The notes beneath the pieces were generated by a model that saw only the letters and a list, made by a program, of their open reading frames with translations, made no database searches and was not told the DNA's origin. The position numbers were made by a program, and so were the translations under genes. Shown piece after piece: positions 40,687 to 58,812 of a stretch of 64,000 bases of DNA. Source of the DNA: an uncultured Prevotellaceae bacterium. Lineage in GTDB: Bacteria; Bacteroidota; Bacteroidia; Bacteroidales; Bacteroidaceae. The stretch covers positions 10,059 to 74,058 of the forward strand of contig CAMZAE010000002.1 of NCBI GenBank assembly GCA_947304115.1. Reading direction: 5' to 3'. The number at the start of each line of letters is the position of its first letter. Within the stretch, counting starts at the first letter, position 1.

Positions 40687-41081
40687 CCTGCTATTCTTAT
40701 CCTTTGCATCAGTCTTTTTATCACTTCCAAGTCCGCAGGCAACCATTTTACGCTATTCAGTTCATCTTTGCCGAGCCATTTTGCCGCTTCGTGCTCATTT
40801 AGATGTAGTGTGTCCGTCGATAGCGAACAGAGATAGCAGTGCATGGTGAGATGGAACTTGGGATAGTCGTACTCCACCATACAAAGAAACTCATCCACAC
40901 TGATCTCAGCCGACAGTTCCTCGCGAATCTCCCGCCTCAATGCCTCCTCTGGAGTCTCTCCTTTCTCTACCTTTCCGCCAGGGAACTCCCACCAGTCCTT
41001 CCACTCGCCATATCCTCTTTGTGTGGTGAATATCTTGTCTCCTTTGCGAATAATCGCGGCTACGACTTCAATCTGCTTCAT
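40683..41081 (-). CDS. NUDIX hydrolase (MutT / (d)NTP pyrophosphohydrolase type)
   Basis: It has the NUDIX box GGKVEKGETPEEALRREIREELSA and is 132 aa. Its start forms an ATGA overlap with the DUF2075 stop. Confidence 0.9.
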   Translation of the reverse strand: MKQIEVVAAIIRKGDKIFTTQRGYGEWKDWWEFPGGKVEKGETPEEALRREIREELSAEISVDEFLCMVEYDYPKFHLTMHCYLCSLSTDTLHLNEHEAAKWLGKDELNSVKWLPADLEVIKRLMQRIRIAG

Positions 41082-43186
41082 ATCTCCTCTAAACCAATAG
41101 ATTTCAAATAGAAGTATGTACTATTATAAAATTCTGGCAGACGGGTATGATCATCAGGATTGCCGTTTGGCACACAAATAATCATTCCTTGGCGAGCACG
41201 TGTCATTAATACTCGGTAAGCATTCAGTTGGTATGATTGGGCTTCTGCCTGACGAATCTTCATCCACTTGCTTCCTCTGAATGCATTGTGGTCCCATCCA
41301 TCGAGCGTGTAGCGGAAATCACCATCCCAAACTAAGCACGTCCAATCGAGCTCTAAACCCTGTATATCAAACTCTGTGGCAGCATCTTCCAAAAACAAAG
41401 AAGAGCGTACGTCCATTTTGTCTGCAAGAAACCAACTCTCTATATCTGGCTGCAATCTTACATCAATAGCCAAAGGTTTCAAACGATAGGCTTGAGAAGA
41501 TACTACTATACCATATCTTTCAGAACCACGAGCTTTCTCTTCTAACCATTTCTTGGCCTTGTCTAAATCACGAGTCAGTACAACAGGATACTTATCCTTG
41601 AACGACCTATAAAGCTCTTTTGCTTGTTCTATATCTCTGCCCAGTACGTAATGAACAAACTTCGACAAGTTTTCCGCACGGAAAGAACGCATCGAAACAG
41701 CCAAATGCAGTTGATCAACCTGTAGCGCATTAGGATTATGGCTAACCAATTCCGCGATATTACCCTCTGCGTATTCTTTATCTGTAAGGTGTTTTGAAAG
41801 ATAAACTTTCCAGTTGGGGAATGTCTCATTGACAGCACGAATCCATTCACCAATACCTGCCTCACCCGTATTGATTTCTTGACCACCTCCGACAAGACAG
41901 ACGATTACAGCCCAGTCTTTTCTTAGATCAAGCGACCATATTAGAAATTCGGCTTCAGACATAGGGAAGTTGGGGACTTTCTTCATACCACCCCTGCTTC
42001 CACCTCGTGCTAACCATCCTGAAAGATGTTCCAAATCCCAAGAACGCTGAGCCTCATCGAAGATAGCCACATGTTCTACTTCACCATGTCCTGCAGTTTG
42101 GTGAGCTACAGATTTCGTCTCGTCAATTTCCAATCGACCATCGGTTATCGGCAGTTTGATTTTTGCTAACATGTTTCCACGATATCGATGGATAATCTGA
42201 ATGAATTGCGACACCTCACGTTTGGCATCAGAGATGTTATACTTATTACCCTTTTCATGTTCTCGTCTTTGTTTATCCTTAGCCAACGCTGCCGTTAATA
42301 CTTTCACCAGTGGCCCGTTACCTGATAGATATACAGCCAGATTACGTTCACCCTCTGGTTCATTTTCTGCTTTTATAGATTGTTGAATAGCGACATTCAA
42401 ACCAACAAGAGTTTTTCCCGCCCCAGGTACACCAGTAACAAAGCAAATGCTTTTCTCTTTATGCCATTTGCTATAATTAATGACATCCAGAACAAATTGG
42501 GTAGTATTTTCCAGTGCCGCACCTGCAGCTTCATGGCGGGTAATATCCTCAACAGAATGATTTTGATACAATGCGCTGGCAGCCTCAATGATAGTTGGTG
42601 TTGGTGAATACCTACTAATAGCCCACTCAGAAAACTCGCTTATAGAAGAGGGTTGTGCATTTTCACGTTTTATTACAGCTTTTATCAGTTCTCTTAGATT
42701 ATCATTGTTGGTCAGCAGAGGATTATAGATATGATCGTCATAAACAGAAAAACGCAACTCATGGCTGCTTTGTTTTGCCTCTGTCGCAACAAGGATAGGA
42801 ACGATGATACGCTTATGGCTATCTAAATGAAAATTCTTTAGATCGAGTGCATAATCCAGCACCTGTTCCATATCAGCCTGCAAATAGGTGTTCTGACCAG
42901 CTTTAAACTCTATTACAAATACTATTCCACGTAGCAATAACACAACGTCTACTCGTTTACCCAATCGAGGAATAGAGTATTCAAAAATTATTTCTCCATG
43001 TTCTTTTTTCCAAGGCTGCAATACACTTTGCATAACCTCTATCTCTTCAGACCATGCAAACTTTTGTTCAGCAACACTATTGCCCTCATCATTTCGAGAA
43101 ATACATCCAAAGATAGCATCAACGGAGCTGTTGATAAAAACAGATAATGACGTTCTATAGAAGTATCTGTTAATCATATTTGACAT
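41078..43186 (-). CDS. DUF2075 (Schlafen-group-3-helicase-like) ATPase with an N-terminal PD-(D/E)xK-like nuclease module
   Basis: The Walker A motif is VTGVPGAGKT. The N-terminal motif is RVDVVLLLRGIVFVIEFK (D...ExK). The ORF extends to 43228, with likely starts at 43186 or 43177 (MINRYFY..). The gene is visibly AT-richer than its neighbours. Confidence 0.8.
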   Translation of the reverse strand: MSNMINRYFYRTSLSVFINSSVDAIFGCISRNDEGNSVAEQKFAWSEEIEVMQSVLQPWKKEHGEIIFEYSIPRLGKRVDVVLLLRGIVFVIEFKAGQNTYLQADMEQVLDYALDLKNFHLDSHKRIIVPILVATEAKQSSHELRFSVYDDHIYNPLLTNNDNLRELIKAVIKRENAQPSSISEFSEWAISRYSPTPTIIEAASALYQNHSVEDITRHEAAGAALENTTQFVLDVINYSKWHKEKSICFVTGVPGAGKTLVGLNVAIQQSIKAENEPEGERNLAVYLSGNGPLVKVLTAALAKDKQRREHEKGNKYNISDAKREVSQFIQIIHRYRGNMLAKIKLPITDGRLEIDETKSVAHQTAGHGEVEHVAIFDEAQRSWDLEHLSGWLARGGSRGGMKKVPNFPMSEAEFLIWSLDLRKDWAVIVCLVGGGQEINTGEAGIGEWIRAVNETFPNWKVYLSKHLTDKEYAEGNIAELVSHNPNALQVDQLHLAVSMRSFRAENLSKFVHYVLGRDIEQAKELYRSFKDKYPVVLTRDLDKAKKWLEEKARGSERYGIVVSSQAYRLKPLAIDVRLQPDIESWFLADKMDVRSSLFLEDAATEFDIQGLELDWTCLVWDGDFRYTLDGWDHNAFRGSKWMKIRQAEAQSYQLNAYRVLMTRARQGMIICVPNGNPDDHTRLPEFYNSTYFYLKSIGLEEI

Positions 43187-43439
43187 TATCTTAATCTTAT
43201 AGATTACATGCCTAATGTTATTTACCACACGTGAGAGGTTTCCTTATTTCATTTTCCCCCGAAAAGAGTTTTAGTAGCATTCCTTTATGACAAATCGTCC
43301 CAAGTCGCCGCTCTTTCGGATGGTTTCGCGGCGTTCTGTGGGTGAGCAGTTCAACTCACGCTCATAGATGAAGTACATGTTACAGATTCTTTGAATTTTG
43401 CTTTGTCTTTGCTATGGTTCTTGGAATCCTTTGCTGGGG

Positions 43440-53161: not shown

Positions 53162-53373
53162 AAATTCTATAACTATAATGCTGTTATAAGGTATTCCCTC
53201 GGTACTTAAAGGACTGCCTGTAGTATTGCTGTTTCCTTTGCATTCTTTTTCACAATATGTTGTGATTTAGACACAAAGTTAAGGAAAAGAATTATAAAGG
53301 CAAAGGAAATTCACAATAAATTGCGAATTCGGGTAGTAGAGCGAGCGTGATGATTGGTTTGCTCCTTTATCGA

Positions 53374-53970
53374 TTATCGAATTTTGATGCCCAGGACATA
53401 AAAATGAGGTATGTATTTGATGATGTCTGATGAAAGGTCGGACTTGATAATTTTATCACCGCAGAAACGAAAAACCCCGCTGTCAGCATCGTACCAGTAA
53501 GAGCCGAACAAGACGAGTGGCATGAATTTCCCCGTATCTGAGGTGGAAACAAGTTCAATGGGACGCGATTGATATAAATGCCGCTGTATCCTTGGTTCTC
53601 CTGGAGCAAAAACGGGCTTGAGTATTAGCTTGCCTGTAAAGCCTTCATCATTGTCGGATTGGAAGGAATAGACATATAATGAGTCATTGTCTGAGGGAGC
53701 CAATCCGATGACAAGTTTTTCTCCGACTGGGAAAGAAACATCAAAGTCAAGATAATTTCCCACCTCTTTTCCGTCAACATATTCCATGACAACAGTCTCA
53801 AGCTGCTTCCCTTTGAAATCCTTTGTGTCAAAACTATAGGCCATATAGCCTTTAGCATTAAGCAAAGGAATATAATCATTGAATGTTGCCTCTAATGTTT
53901 TCAAATTCTGTCCCTGCCCTGTCACTACGAAGATGGTGAGGAGAATTGTGATGATGGTTTGCTTGTTCAT
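53374..53970 (-). CDS. Hypothetical secreted protein
   Basis: It has a signal peptide (MNKQTIITILLTIFVVTGQGQ) and is 198 aa and AT-rich. I recognise no motif. Confidence 0.5.
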   Translation of the reverse strand: MNKQTIITILLTIFVVTGQGQNLKTLEATFNDYIPLLNAKGYMAYSFDTKDFKGKQLETVVMEYVDGKEVGNYLDFDVSFPVGEKLVIGLAPSDNDSLYVYSFQSDNDEGFTGKLILKPVFAPGEPRIQRHLYQSRPIELVSTSDTGKFMPLVLFGSYWYDADSGVFRFCGDKIIKSDLSSDIIKYIPHFYVLGIKIR

Positions 53971-54348
53971 TATTCCTTTACTTTTCTTATATAACGAATC
54001 TGGATGGTTTTTTATGACATTGAGGCAGAATAATTAAGGCTTATTCACAGAAGTTACTCCCGCGTCTCGCGACGCAGGAGCCGGGTGGCGTCAATTTATT
54101 AACTTTAAAAACCCAATCGGGATGATTATTCTTTGTCCTTCTTCGGTTCCATACCTTTCAGATACACCTTCTCACCGTTGATGTAGCTATCTCTTGTTTT
54201 TCTTTCTGATATGAAAACGAATCAACCGCCCCCAAATTGTATAAAGCCTTCACTTTTCCTGACATTTTGCTACAAAGATACCACTCTTTGCCGGTAATGA
54301 CAAGTTCACGACAAATTTTCTGTCCTTACCTGGTTAGCGGTGATGATG

Positions 54349-54561
54349 TCAACGACATTCCATTGGTACGAGTTTCAGGATAACGATTTGTGTGTCTGTG
54401 CCATAGCGTCTTGGCTTGTCACCAACAAGTTGTCTGACTCTTGCCAAGGCTTCTGTTTCACTTGCGCTATGCAGGCTTATCAATGCTGCCGATGTGTAAA
54501 CCAAAGTACATAATCTTCCTGCCATAAAGCCATATTCTACACGATACATTCTTACACCCAT
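54349..54561 (-). CDS. Small hypothetical protein (66-70 aa), third gene of the sigma/mini-DnaE cassette
   Basis: The ORF starts 13 nt downstream of the mini-DnaE stop. An alternative start is at 54549 (MYRVEYGF..). No motif is recognised. Confidence 0.35.
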   Translation of the reverse strand: MGVRMYRVEYGFMAGRLCTLVYTSAALISLHSASETEALARVRQLVGDKPRRYGTDTQIVILKLVPMECR

Positions 54562-54574
54562 AATTTTTTTTTGG

Positions 54575-55471
54575 TTATTTTATTTCGAATTTATACTTCT
54601 CTATTACCCGACTGACGGCATGGGCTTTCAGGAAAGCGCGAGGATTGCTGGTGAGGCGTTGCCAAGCTGTCTCGGCCTCTTCTATAGTAATATCATTTAG
54701 GTCTGCAAAGACTTCCTTTTTGTAAGTTTCCACTTGCTCCTTTTCTCCCCGCTGGATGGCGATACGAATTTGGTTGGCCTTGATGCTGCCTGCATGAAAG
54801 GTCTCGCGGAGGAGGTCCATTATCTGCTCCTGATAAATCAAGCGGCCGAAAGTGGAAGGCTCTTGGATATAAGCTTCGTACAAATCCATTGTCTGAGGGA
54901 AGTAGAGGGCATAGCGGGCCAACTCATCATCGAGGTTTTCTGGCAAAGGCCTCTTATGCTTGTTGCTTAGATACGTCGAAGGACACAAGTCCTGGAACAG
55001 GCATTCTCTGATGGCTGCGATGTCATAATCTCCGGCGTTGGCTTGCAGCAAAGCCTCTGCTTCTTCCTTGAACTCGTCAAAACGCGAAGCTTCGATGTCG
55101 AACTGGAATTTAGGCAGGCCGTCGTTGACAAAGCGGGCAGAGTGAAGACCGTATTTCATAGGATCAACCTCCGTAAGCCCCAGACAATAACAGACAATAG
55201 AGGAAGGCATTGCGCCCCTTGCCCAAACATTTATCTCTGCCGACATTGCATACTTCCTAAAAATCCAAAAGGCCATGATGTAGTAATCGACAAAGCCTGC
55301 GTTGATAATTTGCTTCATTTCCCATAGCATTTTCACGGGTATCATACTGCAAAGTGTTACAGATGGCTTAATCTTTACGCTCTTGAGATTATCGCCATAA
55401 CGCTTTTTCATGCCAGTCGATACAAGCTTTTGAAGTAATTCTGCGTGTGTCATTTTCATTTTCTTATTCAT
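54575..55471 (-). CDS. Pol III alpha (DnaE)-derived 298-aa protein lacking the PHP domain, most of the palm/thumb, and the beta-binding and OB domains
   Basis: The start at 55471 ([13 protein letters not shown]) overlaps the sigma-like stop by 8 nt. The segments [68 protein letters not shown] and FLKAHAVS parallel conserved DnaE palm-entry and finger motifs. This alignment is from memory. Confidence 0.6.
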
Positions 55472-55862
55472 GTTTCTGCTCCTTAAAGATACTGCGACAA
55501 TAAATTTGTTGAACTCTCTTTTCTGTGATTTCCCATTCTTTAGCGATGTCTGCCAAAGGACGACCTTCATCGATACCCTTCCGGATGCTGCGTTCACGTT
55601 CCGAGAGTGTGCTTTGTCCGCCTGAAGAATAATTGACCAAGGCCTGTAGGATGCTTTGCCTTACCCACCATACGGCATAGCTCATAAAGGTACAGCCCTT
55701 GTCTTGGTCGAACCTTTCTGCTGCCACCTCAAGCCCTTTGTTCCCCTCTTCGATAAGTTGTTCCAGCGTGAGACCTTGGTTCAAATACTGCTTCGCCACA
55801 GCCTCAACATAACGGCGGTTCTCTGTGACTAACTCTTCTGTGTTCATTTTCTTGTTCATCAT
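55464..55862 (-). CDS. Minimal sigma-70-family protein (region 2 plus a region-4-like HTH, 132 aa)
   Basis: [38 protein letters not shown] matches sigma-70 regions 2.1-2.4. [23 protein letters not shown] is a region-4.2-like HTH. Confidence 0.7.
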
Positions 55863-55924
55863 AACAGTTTTTAGTTAAGAGGAATGTCCCTCCATATTAT
55901 ATATATCTTTATACGATGAAATAA

Positions 55925-55967
55925 ACGAAAAAACGGCGTTTTTGCCACATAATGTGCAAAAACGCCG
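55925..55967 (-). terminator. Rho-independent terminator of the WYL/PD-(D/E)xK operon
   Basis: The 12-bp stem CGGCGTTTTTGC / GCAAAAACGCCG has a 10-nt loop. On the - strand it is followed by TTTTTTCG. Confidence 0.7.
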
Positions 55968-56001
55968 CAGAAAGAGGGCAGATTTTTAAATATAATGACA
56001 C

Positions 56002-56838
56002 TTATTCCGCGAAGTTCATATATCGTTCCATGAGATAGTCCTTTAAATCTTTAGGCATTTGTTCTTTCATTATCTCCCAAAGATTGCTATATGATTCCCA
56101 TTCGGGAACTACTTTTAATCCCACATTTTTAATATTATCTCTGAAATTTTCAAATAGTTTTTTATAATTAGCATATGCCTTATGCTCATCTTCGAAACGC
56201 TTGGAAGGTTCAAATATGAGTGTGATAAACTTCAATTCTACCTTCCCGAAATCAATAATACCAACATTTTTAAAGGTATCGCACAGTTCAACAAATTGGC
56301 TATGAATTCCCAAAAGGTGGGTAATTAGTTGTTTAACCCCTTCTTTATATTTATATTCTCTTTCTGGAATATACCCCACAATCTTTTCCCATTTAACATC
56401 TTTGTTACACCATTTATTTTCTTCTCTATAACTATTACCTAGTTCAAACTTTTTTGTTTCCGTATATTCAGTAAATTTAGACTCAATGAATAAGAGATGC
56501 TTCTTATCTTTATCTATTAGTACAACATCCATATTGGCAGGGGCAGGACTATCCTTAATTGTTTTCATCTTGACCTCGAAAAACACTTGAGTATATTTGA
56601 CTTGTTCCCATTCAAAAGGATGTTCGTCATCTATCCAATGAAAAAAATTATACGATAGCATTGATGAAGAATGAACCGCCTCAGCTTTGGAATGCAGTTC
56701 TCCACCCGAACCTTCATCAAACATATCTTGAAAATGTTCACTCATTTGACCTCCATAGATATTCTCTCTATACGAACAAAAATATCCTCTCTTATTAACA
56801 GGAAGGCCTTTCTTTAAAGCGTCTAAAAGATTTTCCAC
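56002..56838 (-). CDS. Predicted PD-(D/E)xK-fold nuclease-like protein (hypothetical, 278 aa)
   Basis: The motif MDVVLIDKDKKHLLFIESKFTE fits D-x(n)-E-x-K. The upstream motif HSSSMLSYNFF recalls restriction-endonuclease-like families. The gene is very AT-rich. Its GTG start is 2 nt after the WYL stop. Confidence 0.5.
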   Translation of the reverse strand: MENLLDALKKGLPVNKRGYFCSYRENIYGGQMSEHFQDMFDEGSGGELHSKAEAVHSSSMLSYNFFHWIDDEHPFEWEQVKYTQVFFEVKMKTIKDSPAPANMDVVLIDKDKKHLLFIESKFTEYTETKKFELGNSYREENKWCNKDVKWEKIVGYIPEREYKYKEGVKQLITHLLGIHSQFVELCDTFKNVGIIDFGKVELKFITLIFEPSKRFEDEHKAYANYKKLFENFRDNIKNVGLKVVPEWESYSNLWEIMKEQMPKDLKDYLMERYMNFAE

Positions 56839-56840
56839 AA

Positions 56841-57746
56841 TTAATAAATGTTACACATATTGTTAATTCTTTTCTTCATTTCCTCTCTCAACTCCTGTGG
56901 CTCTATCACCTCAACCTTTTCTCCCATTGCCAGCAGTTGGCTTACCAGTTCGGGTGTTATACATAATCTATAAGTGAACTCGGCAAACTCGCCGTGTTTG
57001 GAGCGGACTTCTGATTGGCTTTTGTGGAGCGGAGTAGAGCGAAGATAATCTGCCTGTATGCCGTAAGCACGGATTTTGACTTTCGTGACAGGCAAATCTT
57101 TATTCACATAAATGCCAACAACATTCGCAAAATGTTTCCTCGCATCGAAATCCTCGGGCATTTCAAAGCTGGTCGAAAGGACTTTCAAGTCAAGAATACG
57201 GTCGAGGGCGATGGTACGCAAAGCATTCTTTTCCTTTATATACCCAAGCAGATACCATCGACGATTGAAAACCTTCAAGGCGTATGGCTGGATATGAAAC
57301 TCCTGCAAATGCTCCTCTTGCTCATCTTCATAACGCTGGTAGTCAACTTGCAGCTCAACATTCTTCTGCATCGCTTCAATGATAGGATTCAGGAATGTAG
57401 TCCCAAGGGGAATCTCTTCCTGCAAAACACTGTCCTTCATACTATTGAAGGTTATAAAGTCCTGAGGAATGCTGTATTTCTGAAGCAACCACTTTCCCAA
57501 CTTCTGCTCGTCAAGGACTTCAGGGTTCTTGACATAATAGACGTTACCTTTCGACCTGTTACATTCTATATCCACTCCAAACATCTCTTTGATGCCATCT
57601 CTCCACTCATGAAAGGTCCGAATCGACAATCCTCCTTCGTGCATGGGATTATCTTTCCAGCGTTTTTCTATTTGCCAAAAGCTCAACTCCTCCCGAAGCA
57701 ACGTGTTCAGGAGCCAAATATATTTAATGTATGTCTTGCTTACCAT
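56841..57746 (-). CDS. WYL domain-containing transcriptional regulator
   Basis: It has an N-terminal wHTH, the central motif FNRRWYLLGY (WYL) and a C-terminal WCX-like region, and is 301 aa. Confidence 0.8.
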   Translation of the reverse strand: MVSKTYIKYIWLLNTLLREELSFWQIEKRWKDNPMHEGGLSIRTFHEWRDGIKEMFGVDIECNRSKGNVYYVKNPEVLDEQKLGKWLLQKYSIPQDFITFNSMKDSVLQEEIPLGTTFLNPIIEAMQKNVELQVDYQRYEDEQEEHLQEFHIQPYALKVFNRRWYLLGYIKEKNALRTIALDRILDLKVLSTSFEMPEDFDARKHFANVVGIYVNKDLPVTKVKIRAYGIQADYLRSTPLHKSQSEVRSKHGEFAEFTYRLCITPELVSQLLAMGEKVEVIEPQELREEMKKRINNMCNIY

Positions 57747-57767
57747 GCAAAAACAAGGTTTGGACAG

Positions 57768-58802
57768 CTAAACATTCGACAGGACGACGGCTTCTTTCTC
57801 TTTTTGTTGAAGGAGGAAGAGTTCTTTCTGTTGCTCTATCTCGCGGCGCAATTCCTCCTCTGTGGGCAGGTAGGGCATATACTTGGCAGCGAAGAGTTGT
57901 TGGCTGTCGTTGAGTATGGAATACTTGGCGATGGCCTTGCTCGTTTCCGAGCACAACACGATGCCGATGGTGGGATTGTCGCCATCGGTTCGTTTCAGTT
58001 CATCATACATGCGCACATACATATCCATTTGTCCCACGTCTTGATGAGTTATTGTACCCACTTTGAGGTCAATAAGTACATAACATTTCAGTATTACGTT
58101 GTAGAACACAAGGTCAATGAAATAGTCTTGCGTGTCTGTGCGTATGAGTTGCTGGCGTGCCATGAAAGCGAAGCCTCGTCCCAACTCCATGATGAAATCT
58201 TGCAGATGGCTAATGATGGCGGTTTCGAGTTCTTGTTCAGAGAAACTGCTGTCTTGCTTGAACCCCAAGAACTCGGCAACGATGGGACTCTTGAGCATTT
58301 CAAGTTTGTTGGGATGTTCCTCTTTCATAGGCAGCTGTGGCTGTCGGAAATGTCGCTCGAAGTATTGTGTGCCGATGTTGCGATTCAATGTGCGCACACT
58401 CCACATTTCCTGCGAAGATGTCTCAAGATACCAGCGTATGGCAACATCGGTGTCTGCTCTCAAACAATAGAAAATATGTGTCCATGTGAGATTCGGAAAT
58501 CGTGATTTCCAAATTCCAAAATCCGGGAGTATGAGATAGAATTTACGGAAGGAACGAAGATAACGTGCAGAGAACCCTTTTCCATATCTTATTGTTAATT
58601 CCTTTGACAATCCTTCCAATATGTGTTCTCCATACTTGGCTCTTTCTTTCCCTCGCTGTTCTTCCTCCACTATTCTTTTGCCGATGTTCCAGTATGTCTC
58701 AATCATGGTGGCATTGACAGAGGAATATGCTTTTGTCCGTCCAGTTTCAATGATAGAGCATACGTCGGAGAAGAGACTGCTATTGGTTATTTGTTGTATC
58801 AT
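57768..58802 (-). CDS. YhcG / DUF1016 PDDEXK nuclease domain protein
   Basis: It has a DUF1016-type N-terminus (..ETYWNIGKRIVEEEQ..) and a C-terminal nuclease core (YFIDLVFYN..YVLIDLKVG). Confidence 0.85.
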   Translation of the reverse strand: MIQQITNSSLFSDVCSIIETGRTKAYSSVNATMIETYWNIGKRIVEEEQRGKERAKYGEHILEGLSKELTIRYGKGFSARYLRSFRKFYLILPDFGIWKSRFPNLTWTHIFYCLRADTDVAIRWYLETSSQEMWSVRTLNRNIGTQYFERHFRQPQLPMKEEHPNKLEMLKSPIVAEFLGFKQDSSFSEQELETAIISHLQDFIMELGRGFAFMARQQLIRTDTQDYFIDLVFYNVILKCYVLIDLKVGTITHQDVGQMDMYVRMYDELKRTDGDNPTIGIVLCSETSKAIAKYSILNDSQQLFAAKYMPYLPTEEELRREIEQQKELFLLQQKEKEAVVLSNV

Positions 58803-58812
58803 ATTCGTTGGC

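Follow-up and report, generated by a model that had tools for sequence, protein, structure and literature searches.

The stretch analysed here, which we call the window, comprises 64,000 nucleotides (nt) of contig CAMZAE010000002.1 (assembly GCA_947304115.1) from an uncultured Prevotellaceae bacterium. The subject of this study is a pair of genes on its minus strand, one for a WYL-domain regulator and one for a nuclease-like protein. The regulator gene (56841..57746, minus strand) is an open reading frame (ORF) of 301 amino acids (aa) that ends in a TAA stop codon and contains the motif FNRRWYLLGY. Two nt past this stop lies the GTG start of the second ORF (56002..56838, minus strand, 278 aa), which carries HSSSMLSYNFF at residues 56-66 and MDVVLIDKDKKHLLFIESKFTE at residues 103-124. 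An intrinsic terminator at 55927..55968 (minus strand) closes the unit with a 13+3 bp stem at about 55933..55968 followed by U6; its folding energy was -23.7 kcal/mol (z = -5.2), and none of 200 shuffles folded equally well. These features had been pointed out in an earlier note made from the letters of the sequence, and all of them were verified. The note had also presented the two genes as a candidate minimal defence module. We found instead that the pair, in Prevotellaceae-type genomes, is the variable arm of a larger cassette that is conserved in Bacteroidales and consists of a WYL gene, a variable nuclease slot, a sigma factor gene, and a gene for a fragment of the DNA polymerase III (Pol III) alpha subunit, here termed mini-PolIIIalpha.

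The predicted nuclease and the WYL regulator

The 278-aa protein had been considered unassignable to any named family from its sequence alone, but it matched the Pfam family PF22558 with 36 bits against a gathering cut-off of 27, and its residues 34-274 corresponded to profile positions 45-270 of 270. The full name of this family is 'REase-ARP: restriction endonuclease associating with ARP'. A protein search returned 249 relatives; with an exhaustive profile search and a limit of E = 1e-3, the number of cluster representatives rose to 1461. Out of 50 homologues scanned against Pfam, 43 also matched REase-ARP, while 15 touched PDDEXK_13 and six touched DUF234 as weak cross-matches. An exact look-up of the window protein gave no record, and sequence and profile searches of the PDB with this protein were empty. 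Three members of the family, P0051 (452 aa), P0370 (610 aa), and P0426 (633 aa), had long extra N- or C-terminal regions.

In the 50 relatives, which reached down to 38% identity, the residues E47, K51, H56-S59, E88, D104, S120, K121, E124, K169, Q170, and H174 were invariant, and E119 was present in at least 90%. A bare D...ExK pattern is trivial; the one noticed earlier is nevertheless more than chance because it is conserved across these homologues. Conservation and the strands of an AlphaFold2 (AF2) model place the predicted catalytic core, E88 ... D104 ... E119-S-K121 ... E124, at 56467..56577 (minus strand). The model had a predicted local distance difference test score (pLDDT) of 96, a predicted template modelling score (pTM) of 0.93, and a core order of alpha-beta-beta-beta-alpha-beta, the order known from PD-(D/E)xK nucleases. 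Its strands 80-91, 101-109, and 114-121 carry the predicted core residues, with D104 on the second and E119-x-K121 on the third, and the acidic-acidic-lysine motif of PD-(D/E)xK enzymes was thus found on consecutive beta strands. The identification of the protein as a PD-(D/E)xK-type nuclease is well supported by sequence and predicted topology; the structural searches, which gave no match, are weighed below. Residues 1-31 align with ATG-started homologues at the equivalent position, and L8, G18, Y19, and N26 are invariant. We regard the GTG start as real because the ATG starts of the homologues coincide with it and residues 8-26 are conserved. No cognate DNA methyltransferase of a type II restriction-modification system was seen among the window neighbours or the frequent neighbour families.

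No paper was found in the literature under the names REase-ARP or PF22558. Systems centred on an ADP-ribosylglycohydrolase (ARG) are described by Iyer, Burroughs, Anantharaman and Aravind (2022; PMC9503650); in them, a 'rapidly evolving REase' occurs together with phosphatases and with WYL or Nudix factors as regulators. From the names used in the ARPP paragraph of that paper, we infer that PF22558 is this REase. As far as could be found, the REase-ARP family is known only from this computational paper.

The regulator contained a WYL domain at residues 119-189 (1.3e-13) and a WCX domain at residues 220-297 (1e-10) in Pfam, and both domains were present in all 19 orthologues. A profile of these 19 orthologues matched PafBC (6sj9, 1.8e-20), DriD (8tp8, 4e-14), CapW (5e-5), and BrxR (7e-4). 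No Pfam helix-turn-helix match was obtained in the protein, even at E = 1. The AF2 model of the regulator was poor as a whole (55), but its first 80 residues reached a pLDDT of 74-91, with residues 4-73 in the order helix-helix-helix-beta-beta. Foldseek searches with this model produced full-length alignments to PafBC, DriD, and CapW over 315-351 columns (best E 2.7e-8). An N-terminal winged helix-turn-helix (wHTH) is predicted from the model, and profiles and model together indicate that the protein is a wHTH-WYL-WCX regulator of the PafBC/DriD/CapW/BrxR kind. PADLOC matched it with generic WYL models only. Single-stranded DNA (ssDNA) is the demonstrated ligand of CapW (PMC11662680), DriD (PMC9186387), and SiwR (PMC10693628), and DriD activates the bapE promoter (PMC13004042, PDB 9pfq).

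The linkage of regulator and nuclease was examined in REase-ARP loci drawn from one genome per species (55 loci, almost all from rumen or gut Bacteroidales metagenome-assembled genomes). In 16 of 52 species-level loci, the gene directly before REase-ARP encoded a WYL/WCX protein. The spacing from the WYL gene to the nuclease gene was about -35 to +40 nt in relatives; the one exception was a 122-nt overlap in locus L049, where the start of the ORF was probably placed too early. Two unrelated cassette types contained the pair, WYL-REase-Metallophos and WYL-REase-sigma-miniPolIIIalpha. Immediately downstream of REase-ARP, a small calcineurin-like phosphoesterase (Metallophos) was found in 11 of 51 loci, and this gene matched the PADLOC candidate PDC-S10 (6e-41). 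Other phosphoesterases beside REase-ARP were His_Phos_1 in two loci and HAD and GDPD in one each. The WYL adjacency is strongly enriched, and the link is genuine. The ARG context that apparently lies behind the family name was absent in the Bacteroidales clade studied: when 216 neighbours from position -3 to position +3 were scanned, the 25 commonest families listed in each scan included no ARG, Macro, NADAR, Nudix, or rhodanese-phosphatase, and none of these was present in the window genes scanned (about 39.7-62.6 kb).

A conserved cassette with a variable slot

In 18 of the 55 loci, a Pol III alpha-like gene lay no more than a few kb from REase-ARP, and DNA_pol3_alpha was the commonest family at neighbour positions 2-3. 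A reverse search with mini-PolIIIalpha alone recovered the same order of WYL, a 279-aa protein, sigma, and mini-PolIIIalpha. In counts from rumen metagenome loci, which were not dereplicated, a sigma homologue stood just upstream of mini-PolIIIalpha in 42 of 43 loci, a WYL gene lay upstream in 21 of 22, and REase-ARP occupied the slot between them in nine of 22. The other slots held divergent REase-ARP relatives, unrelated ExK-motif proteins, metallo-beta-lactamase (MBL)-fold and Metallophos-like proteins (both by sequence motif only), or nothing. One of the alternative occupants was a divergent REase-ARP relative (hhalign 92.5%), and the slots of L083, L084, L095, L101, and L107 were without a nuclease. 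The WYL protein stays 60-84% identical while the slot content varies, and cassettes whose WYL protein is 80-84% identical to that of the window carried effectors that were very divergent or different. REase-ARP evolves fast, and conflict systems have been described as following this pattern, in which the nuclease is swapped and the regulator is kept.

Different cargo follows the WYL gene in L093 (2645-5728), L140 (1848-4046), and L109 (3004-5961). There, an ExK-motif protein is followed by a protein of about 413 aa (656 aa in L109) with an MBL-type HxHxDH motif but without family-scan support, and L093 also encodes a 212-aa protein in which Metallophos-like motifs were recognized by eye. This cargo looks like a second effector set for the WYL cassette.

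Downstream of the nuclease gene and the terminator in the window, the sigma gene (55464..55862, minus strand) encodes a minimal sigma-70-like protein of 132 aa with regions 2 and 4 (Pfam Sigma70_r2 3.1e-14, Sigma70_r4 1e-3). In PADLOC, this protein matched the sigma-like stretch of MzaA, and mini-PolIIIalpha had zero matches. The mini-PolIIIalpha gene (54575..55471, minus strand, 298 aa) starts within the sigma gene, with its start overlapping the sigma stop by 8 nt (ATGAATAA), and the two genes are translationally coupled. Its product matched Pfam DNA_pol3_alpha (3.6e-16) and a finger domain, and P0121 is 100% identical to it at 298 aa.

Only two parts of DnaE1, residues 339-432 and 644-790, had a counterpart in the mini-PolIIIalpha protein. 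In place of PDIDIDF it has PKFQFDIE, and the segment of the third catalytic aspartate is gone. The catalytic residues of E. coli DnaE are D401, D403, and D555. Of the three catalytic carboxylates, the fragment has lost two, along with about 210 residues from the palm and thumb, and it is polymerase-dead. The reading frame is open up to 55597, giving a 340-aa open frame, and a decayed dnaE pseudogene was considered as its origin. This candidate was ruled out, since no fewer than 507 homologues (280-405 aa) are intact and share dozens of positions without variation. Some members of the mini-PolIIIalpha family end in C-terminal WG repeats. A recent polymerase survey (PMC12926913) discarded truncated sequences, and fragments of the mini-PolIIIalpha type are unmentioned there.

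Gene fusions join the parts of the cassette. P0126 is a sigma::PolIIIalpha fusion, and REase-ARP::PolIIIalpha fusions of 603 and 754 aa, with the REase-ARP domain N-terminal and the Pol III alpha-like domain C-terminal, were found in L010 (9058-10869), L015 (9055-10866), and L030 (2834-5098). The fusion gene in L010 and L015 comes directly after a stand-alone REase-ARP gene. In the literature searched, these fusions, the WYL/slot/sigma/mini-PolIIIalpha architecture, and the ARG-less context appear to be undescribed; the REase-ARP family and the idea of WYL-controlled effectors were already known.

Two further kinds of replication-related protein were observed at these loci. A 'short DnaE' of about 750-840 aa adjoins REase-ARP in L025 (944-3406), L011 (2892-5156), L022 (3749-6256), L039 (3908-6295), L031 (264-2582), and L035 (4472-7003). 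It has PHP, palm, and fingers but is without the clamp-binding, OB, and C-terminal domains, and the PDIDIDF motif is kept in some members and lost in L039. In addition, small proteins of 132-223 aa with a short GyrA/ParC-like motif are encoded downstream in L067 (8808-9230), L125 (5938-6336), and L010 (10881-11552). The L067 protein had a weak Pfam DNA_topoisoIV match, and the resemblance in L125 and L010 was seen by eye only. If real, these proteins would be a second replication-protein fragment in the cassettes. The L067-type downstream genes (139, 140, and 162 aa) were searched for in the window and were absent.

The island and its other genes

The cassette lies on a low-GC island (53170..58810) of 5.6 kb that holds the WYL gene, the nuclease gene, the terminator, the sigma and mini-PolIIIalpha genes, and a YhcG gene. 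GC along the island is 0.32-0.50, compared to 0.55-0.58 in the flanks, which contain a Na:Ala symporter and a PPDK_N protein. The 278-aa ORF was confirmed as the most AT-rich coding part: it coincides with the lowest-GC 800-nt stretch, at 0.33 against 0.50 for the window. In relatives, the cassette sits between MFS and EamA, between OmpA and ilvD, or between TamB and nqrA. The horizontal acquisition proposed in the earlier note is supported by this island between housekeeping genes and by the other chromosomal sites in close relatives. No integrase was seen with the cassette. A phage-borne origin was considered as well and rejected, with a single weak match among 2.9 million viral contigs.

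The YhcG/DUF1016 gene (57768..58802, minus strand) encodes a PD-(D/E)xK protein with YhcG_C and DUF1016_N domains (Pfam YhcG_C 4e-53) and ends 21 nt before the WYL ATG, as had been reported. It matched the PADLOC phage-defence candidate PDC-S02 (8.7e-128). The suggestion that it could be a third member of the unit did not hold, since YhcG is not conserved beside the pair and was near REase-ARP in just two other loci of 55, on the opposite strand. It is treated here as a neighbour only.

On the other side, downstream of mini-PolIIIalpha, the island contains a gene for a DUF5041 protein of 198 aa with an apparent signal peptide (53374..53970, minus strand) and a 70-aa ORF without a family (54349..54561, minus strand). 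Neither is homologous to the genes at the equivalent position in relatives. Outside the island, the gene at 41078..43228 (minus strand) encodes a protein of 716 aa whose helicase domain is of the Schlafen group 3 / DUF2075 type (5e-72). This gene lies in the second most AT-rich stretch of the window (GC about 0.38) and may be another imported conflict gene.

Interpretation of the cassette

We consider it probable, by analogy with characterized WYL proteins, that an ssDNA-switched WYL factor controls a DNA nuclease and that the two make up the effector arm of a mobile cassette. The family memberships, the conserved catalytic residues, the gene linkage, the fusions, the variability of the slot, and the character of the island are observations; what the regulator binds, whether it activates or represses, which DNA is cut, and what role the cassette plays are inferred as follows. 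The WYL factor would be made together with the REase-ARP nuclease, given the 2-nt gap between their genes. By analogy with CapW, DriD, and PafBC, its WYL domain would bind ssDNA that accumulates during phage replication or DNA damage, and the operon would be turned on in response. DNA of the invader or of the cell itself would next be cleaved by the nuclease, with an abortive or apoptosis-like outcome. The sigma factor and mini-PolIIIalpha would probably add a second layer of sensing or regulation. In this form, the WYL-nuclease cassette looks like an inducible immune or suicide module. The earlier claim of a WYL-controlled nuclease effector gained from the family memberships and the WYL linkage, while its 'defence' part is still a matter of interpretation.

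Several results weigh against this proposal. The neighbourhood in the window is no large defence island. The viral contigs gave no phage link either way. No PADLOC, PHROGs, or NCBIfam model matched the nuclease, so the PADLOC check suggested earlier returned nothing for the 278-aa protein. Foldseek searches with the model of this protein found no solved nuclease in the PDB (best E 0.86) and nothing significant among the viral models of BFVD (best E 0.027), where the weak, non-significant entries included many PD-(D/E)xK, Cas4, RecE, and resolvase proteins. Because there was no Foldseek match, the nuclease fold rests on sequence profiles and topology.

The upstream region of the window copy is a further point against the proposal. 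In at least 10 relatives, a Bacteroidetes-type box, TAnnTTTGCA, lies 20-35 nt before the WYL ATG. There is no -7 box (TAnnTTTG) between the PPDK_N gene and the WYL ATG in the window, where YhcG occupies the place of the WYL promoter region of relatives and the gaps from the PPDK_N gene to the nuclease gene are 10, 21, and 2 nt. Since YhcG replaces the promoter box and these gaps are tiny, the window copy may be read through from upstream, with its autoregulation altered or lost. The sole TAnnTTTG box near the WYL gene lies inside the gene, at 57715..57722 (TATATTTG). Transcription from this internal box at 57722 would shorten the encoded protein to 267 aa and cost it half of the winged helix. 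The public record P0250 is a 267-aa WYL product that begins at Met35 (57644).

The closest solved relatives of the regulator, PafBC and DriD, are DNA-damage activators and fit repair as well as immunity. The cassette could accordingly serve repair or the response to DNA damage, in a loose parallel to the damage-inducible dnaE2 cassettes. On sensing ssDNA, a WYL activator of the DriD/PafBC type would then induce a nuclease for repair or processing, along with proteins derived from Pol III alpha. The neighbours of REase-ARP are enriched in replication and repair folds (DNA_pol3_alpha in 9 of 113, PHP in 5, UvrD in 2, and DnaB_C in 2), and some of the PHP-PolIIIalpha partners of about 750-840 aa have an intact PDIDIDF. 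However, the Pol III alpha fragment in the window has lost catalytic carboxylates and much of its palm and thumb. A slot that is swapped or diverges fast beside a conserved regulator is typical of conflict systems and not of repair genes, and the cassette is on a low-GC island with varying sites. We therefore regard a repair cassette as unlikely, though worth keeping in mind.

A more speculative form of the immune interpretation, which we advance with considerable hesitation, is a cassette with two sensors in which the WYL-nuclease pair is an interchangeable weapon. The WYL factor would respond to ssDNA, and the dead Pol III alpha fragment, as a decoy or reporter, would register that a phage interferes with the replisome and would switch on transcription or the nuclease. 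Mini-PolIIIalpha is translationally coupled, and sometimes fused, to sigma or to the nuclease, and small GyrA-like fragments join it in some loci.

Returning to the pair itself, it could also be a selfish addiction module, in which the WYL protein restrains a nuclease toxin, by repressing its gene or by binding to it, and the module stabilizes the small island rather than protecting the host. The tight coupling of two genes with the regulator first, the mobility of the island without an integrase, and toxin-antitoxin-like neighbours in relatives (PIN_3 with a 63-aa ORF, and DUF4160/DUF2442) are consistent with this idea. In every studied case, though, wHTH-WYL-WCX factors are switched by a ligand (PMC11662680, PMC9186387), and the cassette persists in the five loci whose slot has no nuclease, which an addiction pair would not tolerate. 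An addiction module is accordingly quite improbable.

The name of the Pfam family and the description in PMC9503650 (WYL or Nudix, phosphatases, and the 'rapidly evolving REase') raise the idea that the cassette is a remnant or variant of ARG-centred anti-ADP-ribosylation systems. In such a system, the WYL protein would sense ligands derived from ADP-ribose and the nuclease would be a back-up effector. The recurrence of phosphoesterases beside REase-ARP agrees with this. On the other side are the absence of ARG and its companions from the listed neighbour families and the scanned window genes, and the placement of such systems by PMC9503650 in Actinobacteria, Planctomycetes, and Proteobacteria, not Bacteroidales. 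Membership in an ARG system was rejected with the core gene absent from the neighbour family lists and the scanned window genes, and a derived variant is very improbable.

Finally, chance juxtaposition of unrelated neighbours on a patchwork island is scarcely credible, since the WYL neighbours are far above expectation for a family present a few times per genome, their spacing is conserved, and the same pairing occurs in two cassette types, even though the window pair is squeezed behind YhcG without a recognizable promoter of its own and about two thirds of REase-ARP loci are without a WYL gene at -1.

The proposed ssDNA-switched cassette can be compared with several known systems. It shares with the ARG-centred systems of PMC9503650 a fast-evolving REase with a D...ExK core that is coupled to a WYL gene, and calcineurin-like phosphoesterases in relatives. 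It differs from them in having no ARG, Macro, NADAR, Nudix, or rhodanese-phosphatase gene and in its rumen and gut Bacteroidales hosts; the sigma factor and the dead mini-PolIIIalpha are new partners. CapW and BrxR act as repressors at the head of defence operons such as CBASS and BREX, and the window regulator resembles them in its three domains, its place as first gene of the operon, the varying cargo, and a plausible sensing of ssDNA. In contrast, its similarity to them in the profile search was weak, and the window cargo is a single nuclease followed by sigma and mini-PolIIIalpha.

The closest solved relatives of the window regulator are DriD of Caulobacter, with its target bapE, and PafBC of Actinobacteria. 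BapE is a DNA endonuclease. DriD is activated by ssDNA and in turn activates the bapE promoter (PMC13004042). Unlike the dispersed core-gene regulons of DriD and PafBC, regulator and nuclease form one mobile, translationally coupled unit here. In PADLOC, PDC-S02 (YhcG) and PDC-S10 (small Metallophos) are single-gene candidates that match neighbours, and REase-ARP itself matches no model.

WYL-regulated operons are emerging as a general way to silence dangerous immune effectors until DNA damage or infection occurs. The present case would extend these operons to a predicted nuclease family, for which 1461 cluster representatives were counted at E up to 1e-3, and to a cassette type often seen in Bacteroidales of the rumen and gut, hosts whose defence systems have received little study. 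New nucleases could be mined from the variable slot that follows the conserved WYL gene. A dead fragment of a replicative polymerase that is coupled to a sigma factor, and fused to a nuclease in some genomes, points to a recruitment of replisome parts for regulation or sensing, which would be a new principle if confirmed.

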